From contig CAIKUK010000009.1 of the NCBI GenBank assembly GCA_903830625.1, positions 1 through 49,689 of the forward strand: 49,689 nucleotides of DNA, given 5' to 3'. Below are positions 1 to 40,031 of this stretch, piece by piece. The DNA comes from Candidatus Yanofskybacteria bacterium. Lineage in GTDB: Bacteria; Patescibacteriota; Minisyncoccia; 2-02-FULL-40-12; GWA2-44-9. Both the position numbers and the translations under genes were made by a program. The notes under the pieces were generated by a model. The model ran no database searches. It was not told the DNA's origin and saw only the letters and a list, made by a program, of their open reading frames with translations. Within the stretch, counting starts at the first letter, position 1. Every line of letters begins with the position of its first letter.

Positions 1-58
1 AGTTAATCAAATGCTTTAAAATCTAACATATGTTAGATTTTAAAGCATTTGATTAACT
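1..58. repeat. Perfect 58-bp palindrome at window start
   Basis: 1-29 AGTTAATCAAATGCTTTAAAATCTAACAT is the exact reverse complement of 30-58. Confidence 0.9.
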
Positions 59-10748: not shown

Positions 10749-11324
10749 TTATCGCTTAAATAATTCCTCAGTCAGTTCAGTAACGCCGATTTTCTTTTCG
10801 GCGGAATATGGAATGACTTTATATTTACCAACTGTTTTTTGAATACTCTGCATCTGTTTGACGTATTCGGATTTTTTAATCTTATCCACTTTATTGGCCA
10901 CAATCAAGATATTTTTATTTCGTTCTTCCAGCCCGCGCAAGATTTCTTTGTCGTTGGCGGTCAGGCCGATTTCGGCGTCAATAATCAAAAGCACCAATTT
11001 CTGCTGATAATGCGAGTTGAACAGATACCAAAAAATTATCTTCTTGAGTTTGTCCCGTCCACCTTCATCGGCTTTAGCGTAACCATAGCCAGGCAAATCC
11101 ACGAGATAAAAAGATTTGTTGATTAAAAATAAATTGACTTCCTGGGTCCGTCCGGGAAACGAGCTGGTTCGGGCCAAATCTTTTTGCTTGGTCAGAGAAT
11201 TGATAATGCTGGACTTGCCCACATTGGAACGCCCAATCAGAGCGATATGGTCTTTGCCGTCATCCAGAGCTTCATCGTCTCCGATAACGCCCTTCACAAA
11301 TTTTGCCGATGTTATTGTTGGCAT
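10749..11324 (-). CDS. engB: Ribosome biogenesis GTPase YihA/YsxC
   Basis: GRSNVGKSS, PGRT, DLPGYGYA, NKVD; start MPTITSAKF. Confidence 0.95.
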   Translation of the reverse strand: MPTITSAKFVKGVIGDDEALDDGKDHIALIGRSNVGKSSIINSLTKQKDLARTSSFPGRTQEVNLFLINKSFYLVDLPGYGYAKADEGGRDKLKKIIFWYLFNSHYQQKLVLLIIDAEIGLTANDKEILRGLEERNKNILIVANKVDKIKKSEYVKQMQSIQKTVGKYKVIPYSAEKKIGVTELTEELFKR

Positions 11325-11460
11325 CCCGCACATAACAGCCATCAGTTGCTGTAACGCAGTACAATTTAACTTTGCTGATGCGTTTAGCTTCCAGAATGGT
11401 CTGTCTTGTTAATTATACTTATTCCCGCAACACGTACTGCATATGGCTGTTATGTGCGGG
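11325..11460. mobile_element. 136-bp MITE-like element, copy 1, abutting engB ATG
   Basis: 18-bp perfect TIR CCCGCACATAACAGCCAT/ATGGCTGTTATGTGCGGG; near-identical copy at 39814-39949. Confidence 0.85.
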
Positions 11461-11492
11461 AAAAAAGTGGGGGTCGCGTTGGCGCGACCCCC
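11461..11492 (-). terminator. Intrinsic terminator of upstream orphan gene
   Basis: Minus strand GGGGTCGCG-CCAA-CGCGACCCC followed by ACTTTTTT. Confidence 0.7.
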
Positions 11493-30853: not shown

Positions 30854-32740
30854 CTAATAGGATACGTCAACTTGGACCTTATCCTTATTATTTGGGATAG
30901 ACCTGACCCAAAATGGGGACAAATTAACATTGGCCGAAGTAATGCCGGAAATTGAGCCTAGATAAGCCCTCATATCGGCGTCATTCTTGCCCAATAGGTC
31001 GGTAATAATCTTTTGTTGGTCCACTTTGGAATAGCCGGGACCGGTCACATGAACCGTAAAGGATAGGCCGTTTTTGGCTTCATCCCAACGAGGATTGGTG
31101 TAGGTTATGGTTAATTTGTCCAGCAAAACGGTTTTACTTTTTTGAGTATCCACATATTGACTAATCAGAGTGTAAAGGTCGGATTCTTTAAAACCGATGG
31201 TTTTGAGTGAGCCAGCTAGATTAACCTTGAAAGTGCTGGCGGTCGCGTCGGCGGGACTGGTTGAGCTGGGACTGCCGATAACCACCTGACTGTCGTTTAT
31301 GATTTTCAAACCATTGATTTGGGTTTTAAGTTCATCTTGAATGTTAGCGGTAAGCAAAGTCGTCAAAGTTTGTTTGGCCGTATTTAAATCAGATTCCGTT
31401 ACCACGGTGGACTGACCGCTGGTGCCATTAAGGATGGGCGCGGTCGATTGGCCGTAAACTTTTTGATATTTTTCCGTATTCCCCTGTTCTTTAAAAGCCG
31501 GAATAGTAAACAAACCCACCGGGACGTTATATTCCGAACCGGCTTTATCGGCGATAACTTGAACATCCTTACTGCCTGGCACCAGTTTGCCGCTAACAGT
31601 TTTGCCGGCCGGTACCACAATCGAAGTCAAAGTGTGAAAAATATGGTGGTCGGCTGATTCGAAACGCGTGGTCGTTACCAGGGGCTGATCCGTTGTCAGT
31701 TCGTTATAAACCGTAATCGTGCCTCGGGCTTTTTGAGCGACATCCACATGACCCGTGGCGATAAAGTCCTGAGAAACGGTTTTTTGAATATTGAAGAGTT
31801 GGCCCGGTACCGCCATACCCGTTAAACTAACGGCCGAAGTATTATCCGAAGCGAACACGGTCAGACTGAAATCCAGCGGCTGGCTGGCTGGCTTAATTGT
31901 CACTTGGGCTTTCCCGGTCGTAATAAAAACAACCGTGCCCAAAATAATGACCGCCACACAAGCCATGGCAATCAGACCGATGCGATGGGAAGAACGCCTA
32001 GGACGGTCAAATCCGTTGGAAACAAGTTTTGGTTTAAAATTTGATAACGAACGTCTGGTTCGGCTAAACCAGCCCATCGCTTTCGGCGCCAAGTTTGTCT
32101 CCGTTGGAATAGCCCGAGAACCCCAGACACTTTTTATTTCCTGCAAGGCGCGATGTTCAAGAGGTTCATCAGAGAAGTCGCTTTGTCTGATTTCCACCGG
32201 AATAGTTTTTTCACGTCCGCCGTAAACTTTCACGTTGCGCTGGTTTTCAGTTCCAGGCACAAAGATGTCATCCAAGCGTCGGCCATTGGGAGAATCATCA
32301 TCTTCTAAATCATCGCTGGTTTCTTCTTTAACTTGTGCTGTTGATGTTGAAATTGAATCTTCACTCGTGGCTGGCTCGGAATAAAAGTCTTCGATCTGGT
32401 TGACCACGCTGATTGAGCCTGAATCGGCCGGGACCAGTCGAGACGAGCTTGTTTGCCGGCTAACAGATTTCTTGGGGGCCGACGAACGGGCCAGAAGAAC
32501 ATCAAATTTATATTTTTTAGCCAAATCGTTCAGTTCCGGACTGGAACAAAGAAAAGAAACCGATTTTCCGAGACTCTTAGATTCGTCTTTGAGAGAAGCA
32601 AAATGCTCTTCTCTCTTGAAAGCCCGGGCGCTTTTGGGCAGTACGAAAATCACTTCTTCGGCCGAGGTGGATTTGAAGAGGTCTAAAATCTCTTCAAACG
32701 AATCATCCTTGAGAACATTGATAATCTTTGTGGAAGACAC
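30854..32740 (-). CDS. Membrane-anchored protein with baseplate J-like extracellular region
   Basis: N-terminal cytoplasmic domain, TM, AQKARGTITVYN, VIADKAGSEYN, LSPFWV. Confidence 0.7.
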   Translation of the reverse strand: MSSTKIINVLKDDSFEEILDLFKSTSAEEVIFVLPKSARAFKREEHFASLKDESKSLGKSVSFLCSSPELNDLAKKYKFDVLLARSSAPKKSVSRQTSSSRLVPADSGSISVVNQIEDFYSEPATSEDSISTSTAQVKEETSDDLEDDDSPNGRRLDDIFVPGTENQRNVKVYGGREKTIPVEIRQSDFSDEPLEHRALQEIKSVWGSRAIPTETNLAPKAMGWFSRTRRSLSNFKPKLVSNGFDRPRRSSHRIGLIAMACVAVIILGTVVFITTGKAQVTIKPASQPLDFSLTVFASDNTSAVSLTGMAVPGQLFNIQKTVSQDFIATGHVDVAQKARGTITVYNELTTDQPLVTTTRFESADHHIFHTLTSIVVPAGKTVSGKLVPGSKDVQVIADKAGSEYNVPVGLFTIPAFKEQGNTEKYQKVYGQSTAPILNGTSGQSTVVTESDLNTAKQTLTTLLTANIQDELKTQINGLKIINDSQVVIGSPSSTSPADATASTFKVNLAGSLKTIGFKESDLYTLISQYVDTQKSKTVLLDKLTITYTNPRWDEAKNGLSFTVHVTGPGYSKVDQQKIITDLLGKNDADMRAYLGSISGITSANVNLSPFWVRSIPNNKDKVQVDVSY

Positions 32741-33057
32741 CGGGTAGTAGAACTTCGAGTTGCCGCAACAAGATTATGGCTTGAAGAGGTAATCGCGAAG
32801 CCTTCGTTTTAATAATCGTGAACCTTGATTTGTTTTTAAATACCTTTCTCTACGCTTAGCGTCATTTGCATGAAGACAGGCTTCGCAGTAAACAATACTC
32901 CATGATTCGCCATTTTTAGTAGACTTGTTGCGGCCTTGATTATGTTCCAACAATCGCCTCTTCAGATTTTCTGTATATCCTATGTATAATTCCTTATTTT
33001 TATTTTCTAGCACGTAGACGTAATGGAACATAACCCTCTCGAAGTTTCACTACCCGG
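32740..33057. mobile_element. 318-bp TIR element carrying a GIY-YIG nuclease, inserted in a start codon
   Basis: TIR CCGGGTAGTAGAACTTCGAG/CTCGAAGTTTCACTACCCGG (18/20); ACA duplicated at 32737-39 and 33058-60. Confidence 0.8.
32774..33031 (-). CDS. GIY-YIG nuclease (UPF0213/SLX1-like)
   Basis: YVYVL...LYIGYT.NLKRRL.EHN.G, YCEA, A.RRERYLK. Confidence 0.92.
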   Translation of the reverse strand: MFHYVYVLENKNKELYIGYTENLKRRLLEHNQGRNKSTKNGESWSIVYCEACLHANDAKRRERYLKTNQGSRLLKRRLRDYLFKP

Positions 33058-33243
33058 ACATGTATAAATTAATATACCAAATTGTTGCCTACAAGTATAG
33101 CCTATGTTATACAAGTTATGAGGAGGTACCTATCAAGAGACCAGGACCCTGTAGGGGCCAGCAAGGCCATTGAGGTCGCCCGGGCGACAACCAATCGAAG
33201 GTATCGCCGGTTCAAGTTCTGGAACTGAGAAAAGGGAGCAGTT

Positions 33244-33525
33244 ATGCCGAAAGAACGTTGTGATATTGTCAGGCACGGACACCGGAAATACAACATCCGG
33301 CAGACGAGACCAGCGAACCACAGAGTTGATCAACCTGCTCCTTCCCTCGGTAAAGTCATTTTAGTCAGGGACGCGAGGGACATGACCATCCGATTCAAGA
33401 TCCAGTTCGACAAAACGTGCACCGTCGCCGATGATCCAGCCTGGCAGACAAGGGCCACAGAGGCGGTACTTCGAGAAATCGGATTCAGGTTCAAGGACTT
33501 CAAGCCGGTTTCGTGGAGACCCTAG
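33244..33525 (+). CDS. Hypothetical protein
   Basis: SD GGGAG, 93-aa ORF convergent with dus. Confidence 0.45.
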   Translation: MPKERCDIVRHGHRKYNIRQTRPANHRVDQPAPSLGKVILVRDARDMTIRFKIQFDKTCTVADDPAWQTRATEAVLREIGFRFKDFKPVSWRP

Positions 33526-36822: not shown

Positions 36823-39813
36823 CTAGCTCATCGTCCGACGCAACGCGCAGTATTCACAATCCTTATCGTCGCAGAAACGGTTCCAGAATTTGAGATTTAA
36901 GATTTCATCGGCCGTTTCTTTAATGACCTCGGTCAATTCTTCCACTTCTTCAGGCAAAATGATAAACGATTCTTTTTTATATTTTCCTTTTTCGTCAGGC
37001 TCAATGAAATCAATATCGCCCGAAACCATGATGTATTTACGGCCATCTTCATATTTATTCAGAAGTAAATTATAGAACATCAGCTGGCGTTTAATATCGC
37101 CGTTGGAACTCTTGGTTGAACCTTCTATCTCGCCTCGGGTTTTCGGTTTTGAAGTTTTGTAATCCACCACATTCACTTCTTTGCCAGAGCCGAGCATTTC
37201 TATCTTATCTATTTTGCCGGTAATCCTAATATCCCCGACGCTTCGGTCGGGGCGGGCCGGCGCAAGCATAATTCCTCGGAGTTCCAATTCAGTTATCGTT
37301 TTTGTCCGCCAAGAGCCGTGATAATTATCGAAGTAGCCAGCCAAGGTTTTATTTCCTTTTTCCAGCAGTTCGTCATATTCTTTTTTACTTAATGGCTGGC
37401 GTTTTAAATAAGTCTCAAATCTAGACAAAAGAAACTTTTTATCCGCTTTGCCGGTTCGATAAGAATCAAAGAAATCTTTGAGCGTGTAATGCACGGCCGT
37501 GCCGTACATCTGATGCTTGGTTTTCGCCTGCGGAATACGGAGCAGATTGGTATAAAAATATTTCCACGGACAATCCAGATAATTATTCAGAGCGGTGACG
37601 GAAAGGCCGTTACGTTTGAACAGGTCGCCGATAAAAGCTTTACTTTTCAGATCAATACCTTTTTGGATCCGCGGAGCAAAAATTATCTCTTTCTTTTTGG
37701 CAAAATTCTTTTCAATCAACTCGGTGTCTTTGGTGGCAATCAGTTCGGGTTTTATTTCCGTGATGAATTGGCAAGGCAACTGGTCTTGCCCGCTTAAACT
37801 TTCTTTGGCATAAGAAATAGACGCGCCTTTCTTGGCTCTGGTCAGGGCCACGTAGAATAACCGCCGTTCATCATCTTCTGTCGCGCCTTTGTCCAGAATC
37901 CGGCCAGTCAGCGAAAATACCCTCGCCGGTAAGACTAAATGGTTCGGCCGGCGTTTATTGCCCCAATGGCCGTCATAAGCGTTGATAATATAGACGTATT
38001 CAAATTCCTGGCCTTTGGAACGATGTGCGGTCATGAGCCGGATTTGCCCTGCGGATGAGCTGATGCTTTTCTTTAATAATAGATTGTGGGTTTTGAGCGT
38101 AGCCAGATATTGCAGGAATTCCGGCAAGCCGTTCGTCGGATGGACTTCCACCAAATTTTTAATTTCATCAAACAAGCCGTTTAATTTATCCAGCTTCTCC
38201 ATGGTCTGGCCCTTCATGATGTATTTCAAAAATCCCGATTCGGTAATTATCTTTTCAAAAAGTTCCGGCAAAGAAATATTATGCGCCAGCGTGGCCCAGC
38301 CGGCCAGAATTTTATAAAAATTCAAAAAGGCTTCCGGATTTTCCACACCCGCTTTTTTAAGCCGGGTTTTTGATTTTATTATTTCATAAGCCGAAATCTT
38401 TTCTTTATGCGCGGATTCTATAATTTTAAACACGTCCAGCATTTCAAATCCTAAAAAATCAATATTCAGCGCTTCAAGCAGTTTCTGTTCGGAACCGAAA
38501 GTCTGCACTGTTTCCAGAATAAGCAAAACTTTTCTGATATCATAATCCGATAACAAGTCCTGGTCGGATTCAATGGCGAACGGCAGACCGGCTTTTTCAA
38601 ACATGGCCGCCACCGGCGCGGCATCGCGATTATCACGATACAAAACGGCAATTTCTTGAGGTTCAGTGCCGGCTTTTATTTTACTTTTAATATCTTCGGC
38701 TAGGAAAAAATATTCCGCCTCCGGTTTTGAGAATTCATACACGCCTATTTTTTCTTTAGGATGCACCACGTTGGCGCTTAAGGGCTTCTCGCCGGCCAGC
38801 AAGCTATGGGCCGCATCCAGGATTGGCTGGGTAGAACGATAATTCTCTTCCAGAACAATCAGTTTAGCCGACGGATACAATTTTTTAAAATATAAGAAAT
38901 TTTCCAGCGAAGCGCCTTGGAAACGGAAGATGGCTTGCTTCTCATCGCCAACCACAAAGATATTCGGATTGTCGTGATAATTGGCCAGCAGTTCCAGAAT
39001 TTTGTTTTGGGCGTTATTGGTATCTTGATGTTCGTCCACCAAAAAATACTGATACTGTTCTTGAATCTGGAGCAAAAGATTTTCATTCGCGGAAAGTTCG
39101 CGCAGCGTTTCCATAATCATGTCGCTGTAATCATAAAGCTTGGCGGACATCAGTTTGACTTGATACCATTCGTAAATTTTAGCCAGTTCGGCATTTTTGG
39201 CGATTTGTTTTTGCAGTTTTTGATAGTCGCCTTTCATTTTGCCCTTGTGAGCTCCTTTTTCATGATACAAATCATCAATCGCTTCAAAGCTTTTTAATTC
39301 AGCCGTAATAATCTTATGAAACTGCTCGGGCGAAACGCCTTCGCGTTTTAAATCATTCAAACACGCCAAAATCGGGCGGACATAAAACATCGGGTCGCCA
39401 AACGGTCTTAATTCTTTGAGCGGCAAAGTGCCAATCGCCTCCTCTATTAAATTAACCTGATCTACTTCGGTGATATTGTTCGCGCCGATAATGCGTGGAA
39501 ATTCTCCAGGATTGGATTTGATGATTTCGTTACAGAATCCATGAAAAGTATTGATGGCCACCGAATAAGCCGGCGTACCGATCATCTCAGCCAGCCGGCT
39601 GCGCATGGAAGCCACGCCCGATTCGGTAAAGGTCAGCGCTAAAATATTGCCCGGATTGATTTGAGTTTTTTGAAGAATGTTGGCGATGCGCAGAGTTAAG
39701 ATTTGGGTCTTGCCCGTGCCTGGCCCAGCCACCACCATAACCGGCCCTTCGATAGCATCGACGGCCTCGCGCTGGGCCTTATTGAGTTGTTTATAGGCTT
39801 CCTTGAATTCCAT
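36823..39813 (-). CDS. UvrD/PcrA-like SF1A helicase with C-terminal PD-(D/E)XK nuclease and Cys cluster
   Basis: AGPGTGKT, VDEHQD, VGDEKQAIFRF, NYRS, TAHRSKGQEF, YVALTRA, GKIDK..VDYKT, CDDKDCEYC. Confidence 0.92.
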   Translation of the reverse strand: MEFKEAYKQLNKAQREAVDAIEGPVMVVAGPGTGKTQILTLRIANILQKTQINPGNILALTFTESGVASMRSRLAEMIGTPAYSVAINTFHGFCNEIIKSNPGEFPRIIGANNITEVDQVNLIEEAIGTLPLKELRPFGDPMFYVRPILACLNDLKREGVSPEQFHKIITAELKSFEAIDDLYHEKGAHKGKMKGDYQKLQKQIAKNAELAKIYEWYQVKLMSAKLYDYSDMIMETLRELSANENLLLQIQEQYQYFLVDEHQDTNNAQNKILELLANYHDNPNIFVVGDEKQAIFRFQGASLENFLYFKKLYPSAKLIVLEENYRSTQPILDAAHSLLAGEKPLSANVVHPKEKIGVYEFSKPEAEYFFLAEDIKSKIKAGTEPQEIAVLYRDNRDAAPVAAMFEKAGLPFAIESDQDLLSDYDIRKVLLILETVQTFGSEQKLLEALNIDFLGFEMLDVFKIIESAHKEKISAYEIIKSKTRLKKAGVENPEAFLNFYKILAGWATLAHNISLPELFEKIITESGFLKYIMKGQTMEKLDKLNGLFDEIKNLVEVHPTNGLPEFLQYLATLKTHNLLLKKSISSSAGQIRLMTAHRSKGQEFEYVYIINAYDGHWGNKRRPNHLVLPARVFSLTGRILDKGATEDDERRLFYVALTRAKKGASISYAKESLSGQDQLPCQFITEIKPELIATKDTELIEKNFAKKKEIIFAPRIQKGIDLKSKAFIGDLFKRNGLSVTALNNYLDCPWKYFYTNLLRIPQAKTKHQMYGTAVHYTLKDFFDSYRTGKADKKFLLSRFETYLKRQPLSKKEYDELLEKGNKTLAGYFDNYHGSWRTKTITELELRGIMLAPARPDRSVGDIRITGKIDKIEMLGSGKEVNVVDYKTSKPKTRGEIEGSTKSSNGDIKRQLMFYNLLLNKYEDGRKYIMVSGDIDFIEPDEKGKYKKESFIILPEEVEELTEVIKETADEILNLKFWNRFCDDKDCEYCALRRTMS
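37233..37252. repeat. REP-like hairpin in-frame in the helicase-nuclease gene
   Basis: CCCCGAC-GCTTCG-GTCGGGG; same arms as 45739-45758. Confidence 0.65.
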
Positions 39814-39949
39814 CCCGCACATAACAGCCATCAGTTGCTGTAACGCAGTACAATTCAACTTTGTTGATGCGTTCAGCTTCTAGAATGGTCTGCTTTGTTA
39901 ATGACTTTTCGTCCCGCAACATGTACTGCCTATGGCTGTTATGTGCGGG
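39814..39949. mobile_element. 136-bp MITE-like element, copy 2, with 7-bp target duplication containing the start codon
   Basis: Same 18-bp TIR as copy 1; ATTCCAT at 39807-39813 and 39950-39956. Confidence 0.88.
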
Positions 39950-40031
39950 ATTCCATGTTCAGAGTATATCATTTTTATAAATTGACAGGATGGTTTTATA
40001 TTCATACAATCTCCCGAGGAGGGTGGGTAGT

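Follow-up and report, generated by a model that had tools for sequence, protein, structure and literature searches.

An element with inverted ends and a single GIY-YIG nuclease gene at a start codon in Candidatus Yanofskybacteria, and its family of gene-bearing and gene-less relatives

The locus and its nuclease

The stretch analysed here, hereafter the window, is the 49,689-nucleotide contig C9 (GenBank CAIKUK010000009.1) of a Candidatus Yanofskybacteria assembly (the source genome, G000; 598 kb in 24 contigs), which we compared with genomes of the same genus (G001 to G005) and with a wider set described below. On its minus strand the start codon of a gene for a 628-residue protein, the host gene, is interrupted by a 318-base element that is bounded by terminal inverted repeats (TIRs) and filled by the gene of an 85-residue GIY-YIG nuclease. 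We favor, with moderate confidence, the view that this is an autonomous member of a family of selfish DNA elements of very small size, each driven by its nuclease. The features of the locus are the following.

30854-32740, minus strand: host gene, 628 aa, start codon GTG at 32738-32740
32737-32739: downstream copy of the target-site duplication, supplying the TG of the GTG start
32740-33057: the element, 318 bases from arm to arm, class A, gene-bearing
32740-32759, minus strand: the GTAGAA arm, inverted end lying 3' of the nuclease gene in its sense direction; CCGGGTAGTAGAACTTCGAG when read on the plus strand
32774-33031, minus strand: GIY-YIG nuclease gene of UPF0213/YhbQ-Slx1 type, 85 aa
32924-32949, minus strand: pairing stretches internal to the nuclease gene (32940-32949 with 33024-33033; 32924-32934 with 32762-32772)
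33034-33040, minus strand: Shine-Dalgarno-like GAGAGGG, 2 nt (TT) ahead of the nuclease ATG; GAGAGGA in G002
33038-33057, minus strand: the GTGAAA arm, inverted end lying 5' of the nuclease gene in its sense direction; CCGGGTAGTGAAACTTCGAG
33050-33061, minus strand: original host start codon (33059-33061) and the three-codon mini-ORF that it opens, ATG TCC GGG TAG
33058-33060: upstream copy of the target-site duplication, ACA on the plus strand, TGT on the minus strand
33071-33076, minus strand: -10-like hexamer TATATT preceded by TG-N (extended -10), ending 9 nt before the original ATG

The two 20-nt arms are 90% complementary (18/20) at a spacing of 278 nt, and the 20-mer arm, allowed up to three mismatches, matches these two sites only in the window, with 0 matches in 100 shuffles. 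The GTGAAA type of arm is the 5' side in all copies of this class in relatives. Between the arms the nuclease open reading frame (ORF) leaves 14 nt free at one end and 6 nt at the opposite end, and no second ORF fits. The flanks read ...gaagACA/CCGGG...CCCGG/ACAtgtat, a 3-bp direct duplication. The initial annotation of this DNA had described TIRs closely bracketing a GIY-YIG ORF, a TGT duplication on the minus strand and the lack of a transposase inside the element, all of which hold on direct reading of the sequence, with a Pfam match now identifying the sole ORF. It had also proposed that the host gene survives on a replacement start. Deleting the element together with one ACA in silico indeed yields ATG TCT TCC ACA, and real empty alleles at the orthologous start (...ATG TCT TCT ACG in G005 and ...ATG TCT TCG ACG in G003) back the reconstruction and show the ATG at 33059-33061 to be the ancestral start codon. 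In the filled state the mini-ORF opened by this ATG reads into the inverted end and terminates within it, and the G of the new GTG is the complement of the element's first plus-strand base, the outermost base of the arm. The host protein matches no Pfam or NCBIfam family; its orthologues in G002 to G005 are 71-80% identical.

The hexamer at 33071-33076 probably serves as promoter for the host gene and, through transcriptional read-through, also for the nuclease gene. The surrounding block, GGTATATTAAT, is conserved in four of the five genomes compared, G003 having GCTATAATAT instead and the G001 block reading TTGTATATTAAT; a simple -35/-10 scan gave no promoter call at this position. From the nuclease stop codon to the host GTG there are 34 nt. 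On our own crude gene calls, a Shine-Dalgarno 4-mer lies at -17 to -4 in only 46 of 529 G000 genes and -10-like hexamers show a sharp peak 6 nt ahead of the start codon (38 genes), which suggests that leaderless mRNAs and their translation are widespread in the source organism. The element RNA folds at -100.2 kcal/mol (z -5.7) with its arms paired; both internal pairings listed above (inverted repeats I9 and I3) are present in the minimum-energy fold, where GGUUAUGUUCCA, containing the nuclease start codon, pairs with ORF codons ~28-31 and a further part of the ORF with the 3' tail.

Upstream of the promoter, ~400 bp at 33100-33500 that separate it from dus, the dihydrouridine synthase gene, have no counterpart in G003, G004 and G005, where dus ends ~25-35 nt before the promoter. 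This segment has a GC content of 0.51-0.54 compared with 0.44 for the contig, and a 93-aa ORF there (33244-33525, plus strand) has a strong ribosome-binding site and no Pfam family.

The nuclease matches the Pfam GIY-YIG family PF01541 over residues 3-71 (E 2.5e-15, 57 bits, cut-off 22.6), and phmmer against the PDB returned the UPF0213 proteins BH0048 (1zg2, E 1.7e-5) and EF2693 (1ywl, 1.4e-4) and no other match. Its AlphaFold2 model (pLDDT 89, pTM 0.75; strands 3-9, 15-20 and 45-52, helices 23-31, 55-65 and 68-83) has the beta-beta-alpha-beta-alpha order of the GIY-YIG fold, and the Foldseek matches of the model are GIY-YIG domains: 1zg2 and 1ywl are best, followed by Slx1 (6seh_A; TM 0.69, rmsd 2.1 Å, 27% identity) and At-HIGLE, which both act on branched DNA, with 4xlg also among the Slx1-type matches and I-TevI weak (E 0.54). 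The protein is closest to the UPF0213 and Slx1 structure-specific nucleases, not to UvrC or I-TevI, and scores 23.1 bits against the NCBIfam group I intron endonuclease model TIGR01453, below its cut-off of 56.05. Ten positions show no variation across 25 element-borne homologues (Y6, Y16, G18, T20, H30, T38, E50, R61, E62 and K66), and conservation of R26 is at least 90%; we take the canonical catalytic residues (the Tyr of GIY, the Tyr of YIG, Arg, His and Glu) to correspond to Y6, Y16, R26, H30 and E62. Nonsynonymous (dN) and synonymous (dS) divergence from the G002 orthologue, 0.067 and 0.56, give a ratio of 0.12, which amounts to purifying selection. By its conserved residues, dN/dS and modeled fold the nuclease looks active and structure-specific. 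It is also predicted to be probably a homodimer: the two-copy model scores 0.76 where the best of three controls scores 0.00, with at least 96% contact agreement between runs and a pLDDT of at least 79. Among solved structures, 20 of 30 homodimers and 1 of 23 monomers attain that mark. Phage records gave 11 weak partial matches (at most 41% identity) to Rhizobium-phage GIY-YIG genes and one unannotated record, and these are uninformative about phage carriage.

A family of inverted ends and cognate nucleases

G000 contains eight GIY-YIG matches, two of them with an internal stop, and five of the eight paralogues are each tightly bracketed by a class of inverted ends of their own.

Class A: C9 32740-33057, end CCGGGTAGT...
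Class B: C15 39990-40282, end ATCCCGCACATAA..., gene interrupted by TAA
Class C: C21 7044-7323, end TCCCGTTAGAGCCA
Class D: C24 46795-47092, end TACCCCCACAC...
Class E: C23 21689-21978, end TCCCGC.CTTGAAG...

Gene-less copies of 58-150 bp exist for classes A to D, and we compiled 39 G000 elements overall. Class A accounts for 19: the gene-bearing copy of the window, nine long gene-less copies (133-139 bp) and nine short ones (58-75 bp). Every class-A copy has one arm of the form GTAGTGAAA and the other of the form GTAGTAGAA, which pair with an invariant tandem of G.T plus A.C at positions 10-11. Compensatory changes in both arms, seen in 7 of 24 pairs among paralogues and also between orthologues, indicate that pairing of the ends matters. 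The class-C 3' arm codes for the C terminus of the protein (...LTG), its stop TGA overlaps the host ATG (ATGA), and in several class-C copies the old host ATG is in frame with the nuclease ORF.

Four gene-less elements lie in the window.

11324-11461: class B, abutting the start codon of a minus-strand gene of 191 codons
27266-27379: class C, abutting the start codon of a minus-strand gene of 113 codons
33747-33810: class D hairpin, 64 bp, ACCCCCACACTCAGTTG..., in frame inside dus
39812-39951: class B, abutting the start codon of a minus-strand gene of 996 codons

The hosts of the class B and C copies have an ATG rebuilt from the element's terminal A or AT, and the class-D hairpin gives Dus ~19 extra residues (HTQLIESSDGKASNQLSVG) that the orthologues in G003, G004 and G005 lack. 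Those orthologues carry lineage-specific short insertions of their own elsewhere in Dus. The initial annotation had put forward the empty TIR elements of the window as candidate partners of the class-A copy; that assignment does not stand, as they belong to classes B, C and D with cognate genes on C15, C21 and C24. Gene-less class-A copies do exist, all of them on other contigs and none in the window.

A separate family of perfect palindromes (...TGCTTTAAAATCTAACATATGT followed by its complement, arms of up to 37 nt) occupies window positions 1-58 and the ends or interiors of contigs C8, C10, C12, C14, C16, C17, C21 and C23; lying at several contig ends, these palindromes probably break the assembly.

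Among 41 related genomes of the same genus, family and order, 37 contain homologues of the nuclease (145 matches, at most 14 per genome, eight with an internal stop). Flanking inverted repeats scoring at least 10 were found at 30 of 38 distinct matches in the fetched loci, with element lengths of 277-321 bp; of 200 random 250-bp windows two reached that score, one of them a real element. Species genomes of the Genome Taxonomy Database (GTDB) gave the same score at 28 of 64 loci, as against 0 of 150 random windows, in many Patescibacteria lineages, and class-A ends with the same arm asymmetry occur in metagenome-assembled genomes (MAGs) labeled Yanofsky-, Harrison-, Doudna- and Saccharibacteria. 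The anatomy of the family is uniform: two inverted ends of 14-22 bp that can fold into one long hairpin, a single gene of 85-95 aa, and a length of ~280-320 bp. Flavobacteriaceae and most Verrucomicrobia homologues have no flanking inverted ends. In a Prosthecobacter MAG (Verrucomicrobia; L082) a GIY-YIG homologue lies between 31-bp inverted repeats scoring 28, and the architecture may not be confined to Patescibacteria. The search for the TIR with and without GIY-YIG cargo, which the initial annotation had proposed as a check, returned many copies of both kinds, and the nuclease orthologues at the window's own locus lie between TIRs as well.

The end class follows the nuclease tree. This tree comprises 68 proteins, namely those of 27 of the 29 enclosed loci (two truncated ORFs left out) and of 46 GTDB loci that we chose from the 64, less five removed by an ORF-length filter. 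Class C forms a single clade (support 97/88), as does class F (99/96), and class-A ends occur in 18 of the 20 rows of a third clade (98/94), the other two rows having no ends found; 13 of the class-A rows were labeled by script and five were added from the flanking-repeat search of GTDB loci. End labels change 14 times on the tree, compared with 33.9 times in shuffles, none of 200 being as low. The presence of near-identical nucleases in different bacterial families points to horizontal spread, and the nuclease tree disagrees with the taxonomy of the hosts.

Gene-less copies are likewise commoner in genomes holding the cognate nuclease. Counts of the class-A arm motif are 13, 16, 9 and 16 in G000, G001, G002 and G004, which have an A-clade nuclease (at least 76% identity), and 3 and 0 in G003 and G005, which have none, with reversed-pattern controls at 0-1. 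For class-C termini of the form ATCCCGTTAGA the median count is 16 across the 13 genomes that have a C-clade nuclease and 0.5 across the other 28 (Mann-Whitney p 1.3e-4, the genomes being kin and hence not independent). Per genome, termini range from 0 to 106 among close relatives, the 106 lying in a genome of 0.7 Mb.

Placement at gene starts and allelic states

Insertion at a start codon is the rule for the whole family and not a peculiarity of the window copy. Of the 39 G000 elements, 24 have a start codon within -2 to +3 nt of an end, from which an ORF of 100 codons or more runs away from the element; elements placed at random gave a mean of 3.2 and a maximum of 8 of 39 in 200 trials, and placement confined to non-coding DNA, as defined by our own crude gene calls, a mean of 2.4 and a maximum of 8. 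A stricter test, in which the start of the longest ORF must lie at -8 to +6 of the reconstructed empty site, retained 14 of the 39, the null means being 1.5 and 5.0, and undercounts because removing class B and C ends also deletes the AT of the ATG. We give preference to the test on the sequence as it stands. In G004 all 20 fetched class-C copies end in ...GGGAT/G, and the frame stays open throughout the flanking sequence retrieved (~20 codons). The element has the same orientation relative to the adjoining gene in 18 of these 20 copies and in all nine long class-A copies.

The classes differ in how the start is restored. Classes B and C contribute the AT (or the A) of the new ATG themselves and take the remainder from the flank; in class A either the whole ATG is duplicated or a GTG is formed from the terminal G plus TG, as in the window copy and in those at C12 28697 and C15 17382. 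In relatives, an ORF of at least 73 codons that has the same orientation and starts at -1 to +4 of the 3' end follows 19 of the 29 gene-bearing elements (18 before a boundary correction at L002, which was rescored with a start offset of 0). Two others, L032 and L034, overlap the 5' ends of tRNA-Ala and tRNA-Glu genes by 4 and 2 nt, and at L032 the element's terminal GGGGC rebuilds the acceptor stem. The L032 element itself (G014, 1411-1881) is gene-bearing and class-D-like and sits between tRNA-Ile(GAT) and tRNA-Ala(TGC), a pair that we take to be typical of rRNA spacers.

A -10-like hexamer lies 2-14 nt before the element edge at 10 of the 24 host genes (null mean 2.5, maximum 8), seven of the ten being class-A hosts, so that at many targets the gene may be leaderless, with transcription beginning at its ATG. 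By a rough estimate, about one fifth of the ATGR words outside or at the edge of coding sequence are start codons, and selection against intragenic insertion therefore cannot yield 20 of 20. The near-obligate placement at gene starts is a targeting rule without an obvious DNA-level explanation.

The site orthologous to that of the window copy is filled in G000, G001 and G002 (protein identity 87-88%) and empty in G003 and G005, and in G004 a 17-nt remnant of one arm lies there, bordered by a 7-bp repeat, and the ATG has been restored; the empty-site alleles that the initial annotation had suggested looking for thus exist, together with an end remnant. G004 carries a gene-bearing A-type element at another gene start, its own ATG changed to ATA. 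The family occupies many sites. Four-bp duplications flank 10 of the 19 class-A copies, in addition to the 3-bp one of the window copy, and include GATG, TCAT, TATG, CCGA, TTTG, CATA, TACA, TGGA, TCCA and AATG; for classes B and C, whose target sequence matches the element ends, the length of the duplication is ambiguous (2-5 bp). Of the 20 gene-less class-C copies fetched from G004, eight are 91-97% identical and lie at eight different loci, indicating a recent burst in that genome.

Raw data add weak hints of further alleles. The probable source run holds the stretch, and three other sequencing runs hold only short parts of it. In a groundwater run two short contigs join the host start directly to the promoter, like the empty allele of a relative, and in a short contig of another run the two arms stand 33 nt apart.

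A candidate nuclease-driven element, its alternatives and known systems

In light of these results, we propose that the nuclease, probably as a homodimer, would recognize its cognate ends, most likely folded into a hairpin or cruciform, and would cut at the base of that structure, thereby freeing or copying the element. It would then make a staggered cut in the target, with host repair filling the 3-4 bp duplication and completing integration. Insertions fall within a base or two of the gene's first base, where the last 1-5 bases of the element together with the duplicated target bases rebuild the start codon (G+TG at the window copy, AT+G in other classes) or the 5' end of a tRNA, allowing the host gene to survive. 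At the window copy, the host promoter would transcribe the element, the nuclease would be translated from its own ribosome-binding site and the host protein would restart at the GTG. Gene-less elements of 60-140 bp with the same ends would depend on the nuclease of their class. The comparative data support the picture of a selfish TIR element with gene-less dependants that the initial annotation had drawn; the role of the nuclease as the mobilizing enzyme, which we hold to be reasonably probable, its substrate and its way to gene starts are points that we infer from sequence.

Several observations weigh against this reading, and the first of them concern age. Six of the nine long gene-less class-A copies are orthologous insertions common to sister species; the shared copies are 80-90% identical over their full length, with compensatory changes at arm positions 13 and 16 and in the inner stem, and the outer 12 nt of the ends are nearly invariant in the fixed long copies. 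Each gene-bearing class is single-copy in G000, most class-A copies there are old, and the window copy shows no sign of recent movement. No empty-site variant was seen in the sole run that holds the stretch, which is kept as contigs and so would hide rare empty or excised forms. Synonymous differences (pS) amount to 0.69 in the host gene and 0.72 in dus, both saturated, and to 0.40 in the nuclease gene, whose dS is 3-4 times lower than the 1.9 and 2.3 of the flanking genes; the first 300 nt of the host gene are saturated too (pS 0.70) and give no signal of co-conversion. Either strong selection maintains the conserved hairpins where they stand, perhaps since a compact stem separating promoter from start is required by the host gene, or the hairpins arose later than the species and re-enter the same sites.

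Retention of stems between saturated neighbors, purifying selection on a slowly diverging nuclease with one gene per class, and the fixed orientation of all nine long copies beside a start codon would also suit a domesticated, host-serving system akin to REP/RAYT, in which the hairpins are fixed 5' leaders that the nuclease processes or maintains, be it by cleaving DNA in hairpin or cruciform form or by trimming the leader, for example, and movement is rare or extinct. We consider this unlikely given the filled, empty and remnant alleles with a second locus in G004, the burst of near-identical copies there, the range from 0 to 106 termini among close relatives, the discordance between nuclease and host phylogenies and the hairpins inserted within coding regions, all marks of selfish spread; we also know of no GIY-YIG RNase.

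A second set of points concerns the enzyme. Inverted ends were not found at three of the eight G000 paralogues or at 8 of the 38 matches in relatives, and many class-C termini occur in genomes where no C-clade nuclease was detected (17 in G040, 13 in G023 and 10 in G001). The transposase families PF01609, PF00665, PF01797, PF13358, PF00872, PF01548, PF07282 and PF13359 have no match in G000 (serine and tyrosine recombinases were not searched), where the division into 24 contigs makes an unassembled insertion sequence (IS) possible; across the 41 genomes PF01609 is present in three, PF00665 in nine and PF01797 in 19. PF01797, the Y1/HUH family of RAYT proteins, has no match in G000, G001, G002 or G004, which hold 9-16 class-A ends each. 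As to a known IS family with its transposase elsewhere, which the initial annotation had named as a competing outcome, no IS transposase was found, and the TIRs were not compared with IS end sequences.

The elements could be ordinary miniature inverted-repeat transposable elements (MITEs), moved by a conventional transposase that is elsewhere or lost, with the nucleases as homing-endonuclease genes lodged in their loops as safe sites. The sporadic transposases of relatives, the fragmented assembly, the genomes with gene-less copies and no cognate nuclease, and the fact that gene-bearing and long gene-less class-A elements share only ~20 terminal bases all fit such passengers. It is nevertheless quite improbable, since G000 alone would need at least five independent captures, each time by a nuclease clade matching the end class, and none of the eight transposase families was found there. 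Moreover, the ORF fills the interior to within a few bases and the class-C 3' end encodes the C terminus with a stop overlapping the host ATG, which makes gene and ends one unit, and the 85-residue protein, below threshold for TIGR01453, is missing the DNA-binding domain of a homing endonuclease.

The junctions raise a third difficulty, in that classes B and C vary at their upstream junction and only three of the eight young copies have a clean duplication. G000 also has a reverse transcriptase gene (RVT_1, C8:23502-24116, a 335-aa open frame, E 4.7e-25), which may belong to a diversity-generating retroelement. Element RNA could have been joined to the 5' ends of leaderless transcripts, reverse-transcribed and recombined into the genome, a route that would account for the exact first-base placement, the fixed orientation, the combination of a precise downstream with a variable upstream junction in classes B and C, and the abundance of leaderless-type promoters. 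We judge it highly improbable: the clean 4-bp duplications, found also at non-start sites (CCGA, TTTG), point to a staggered DNA cut, joining at 5' ends would not place hairpins within coding regions or at position 10 of a tRNA gene, where they also occur, and the nuclease would be left without a role despite its co-variation with the ends.

The remaining points against a nuclease-driven element lie in the protein itself. An 85-residue catalytic domain has no separate DNA-binding domain to explain recognition of specific ends, and the homodimer prediction may reflect a solved Slx1 homodimer. GIY-YIG enzymes hydrolyze DNA, and to our knowledge they form no covalent intermediates and carry out no strand transfer, so that integration would need host repair or ligation.

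Other explanations were tried and set aside. Group I and group II introns are ruled out by the small size and the lack of a ribozyme match, an integron cassette by the position of the gene within a single hairpin (no integrase search was made), and CRISPR or terminator hairpins by their position and by the duplications, which they leave unexplained. In Rfam 15 no family reached its gathering score in the window except three tRNAs, and 20 element loci gave only three sub-threshold chance hits. In the literature searched, to which most subscription journals do not belong, we found no description of elements with inverted ends and only a GIY-YIG gene, and no paper linking UPF0213 proteins to repeats; a passage of PMC12455944 merely names a GIY-YIG protein in a list of transferred genes.

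If the nuclease drives these elements, they would be among the smallest autonomous mobile elements known (~300 bp), a hydrolytic nuclease with host repair could replace a transposase, and the UPF0213/YhbQ family would gain a testable function. We put forward more tentatively, and with slightly less than even confidence, that they constitute a new class of prokaryotic mobile element, in which an 85-aa nuclease of Slx1/YhbQ type is the sole protein and the "transposase", the ends act as a hairpin or cruciform and the element homes to gene starts, perhaps through promoter-opened DNA, with the 5' end rebuilt; this might be the ancestral role of UPF0213/YhbQ proteins and would explain many lineage-specific gene insertions in Patescibacteria. 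The elements also make two questions accessible to experiment, namely by what means a DNA element locates gene starts and in what way a leaderless gene can bear a 5' hairpin of 60-320 nt. They are abundant in Patescibacteria, where they break assemblies and distort gene calls (false N-terminal extensions, GTG and TTG starts), and recognizing them therefore matters for annotation in this group.

Transposable elements are classed by the chemistry of their enzymes (DDE, HUH, serine, tyrosine, Cas1). We know of no class built on a stand-alone GIY-YIG nuclease, and found none in the literature searched; the present class would be new on condition that the nuclease has the proposed role. IS elements with MITEs resemble the family in their TIRs, short duplications, autonomous and non-autonomous copies, filled and empty alleles and near-identical bursts. 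They are, however, well above the ~300 bp of a whole autonomous element here, whose sole protein is an 85-aa nuclease domain, no known transposase having been found in G000 among the eight families searched, and whose co-varying arm pairing suggests a folded substrate. The IS200/IS605 elements and integron attC sites do use folded single-strand hairpins, which are acted on by HUH enzymes or tyrosine recombinases and leave no duplication; imperfect hairpins with conserved mismatches as recognition features and orientation-specific insertion are shared with them, whereas a GIY-YIG enzyme and 3-4 bp duplications are not. Rickettsia palindromic elements are short palindromes that can lie in frame within protein genes, as does the 64-bp class-D hairpin that adds ~19 residues to Dus; we know of no nuclease gene associated with them, and most copies of the present family lie at gene starts instead of within genes.

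A close parallel in population structure is offered by the REP/REPIN-RAYT systems described by Bertels and Rainey: short hairpin repeats form populations with one cognate, usually single-copy small nuclease gene per class, the gene is flanked by the repeats, persistence is long, many copies are inherited vertically and arm pairing is conserved. The enzyme of those systems is a Y1/HUH transposase and the repeats occupy extragenic 3' regions, whereas here a hydrolytic GIY-YIG nuclease is encoded inside a single hairpin, with 3-4 bp duplications and placement at start codons.

In enzyme type the nearest selfish systems are the GIY-YIG homing endonucleases. The phage T4 Seg proteins and I-TevI are encoded by selfish genes that spread by DNA cutting and have structured mRNA near the start, a feature repeated in the tightly structured mRNA around the start here, and a fungal mitochondrial GIY-YIG ORF reportedly replaces the end of atp6 while keeping the host gene whole. 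They have one long target site, whereas the family described here has many sites, inverted ends, duplications and gene-less derivatives, no DNA-binding domain and a fold nearer to Slx1 and UPF0213 than to I-TevI. It is UPF0213/YhbQ and Slx1 that provide the best sequence and fold matches (1zg2, 1ywl, 6seh, 4xlg) and have the same conserved residues. Slx1, which works in repair with a RING domain and its partner Slx4, cuts branched and hairpin-like DNA, the kind of substrate that these inverted ends would form; here, by contrast, the gene for such a nuclease sits within the mobile hairpin.

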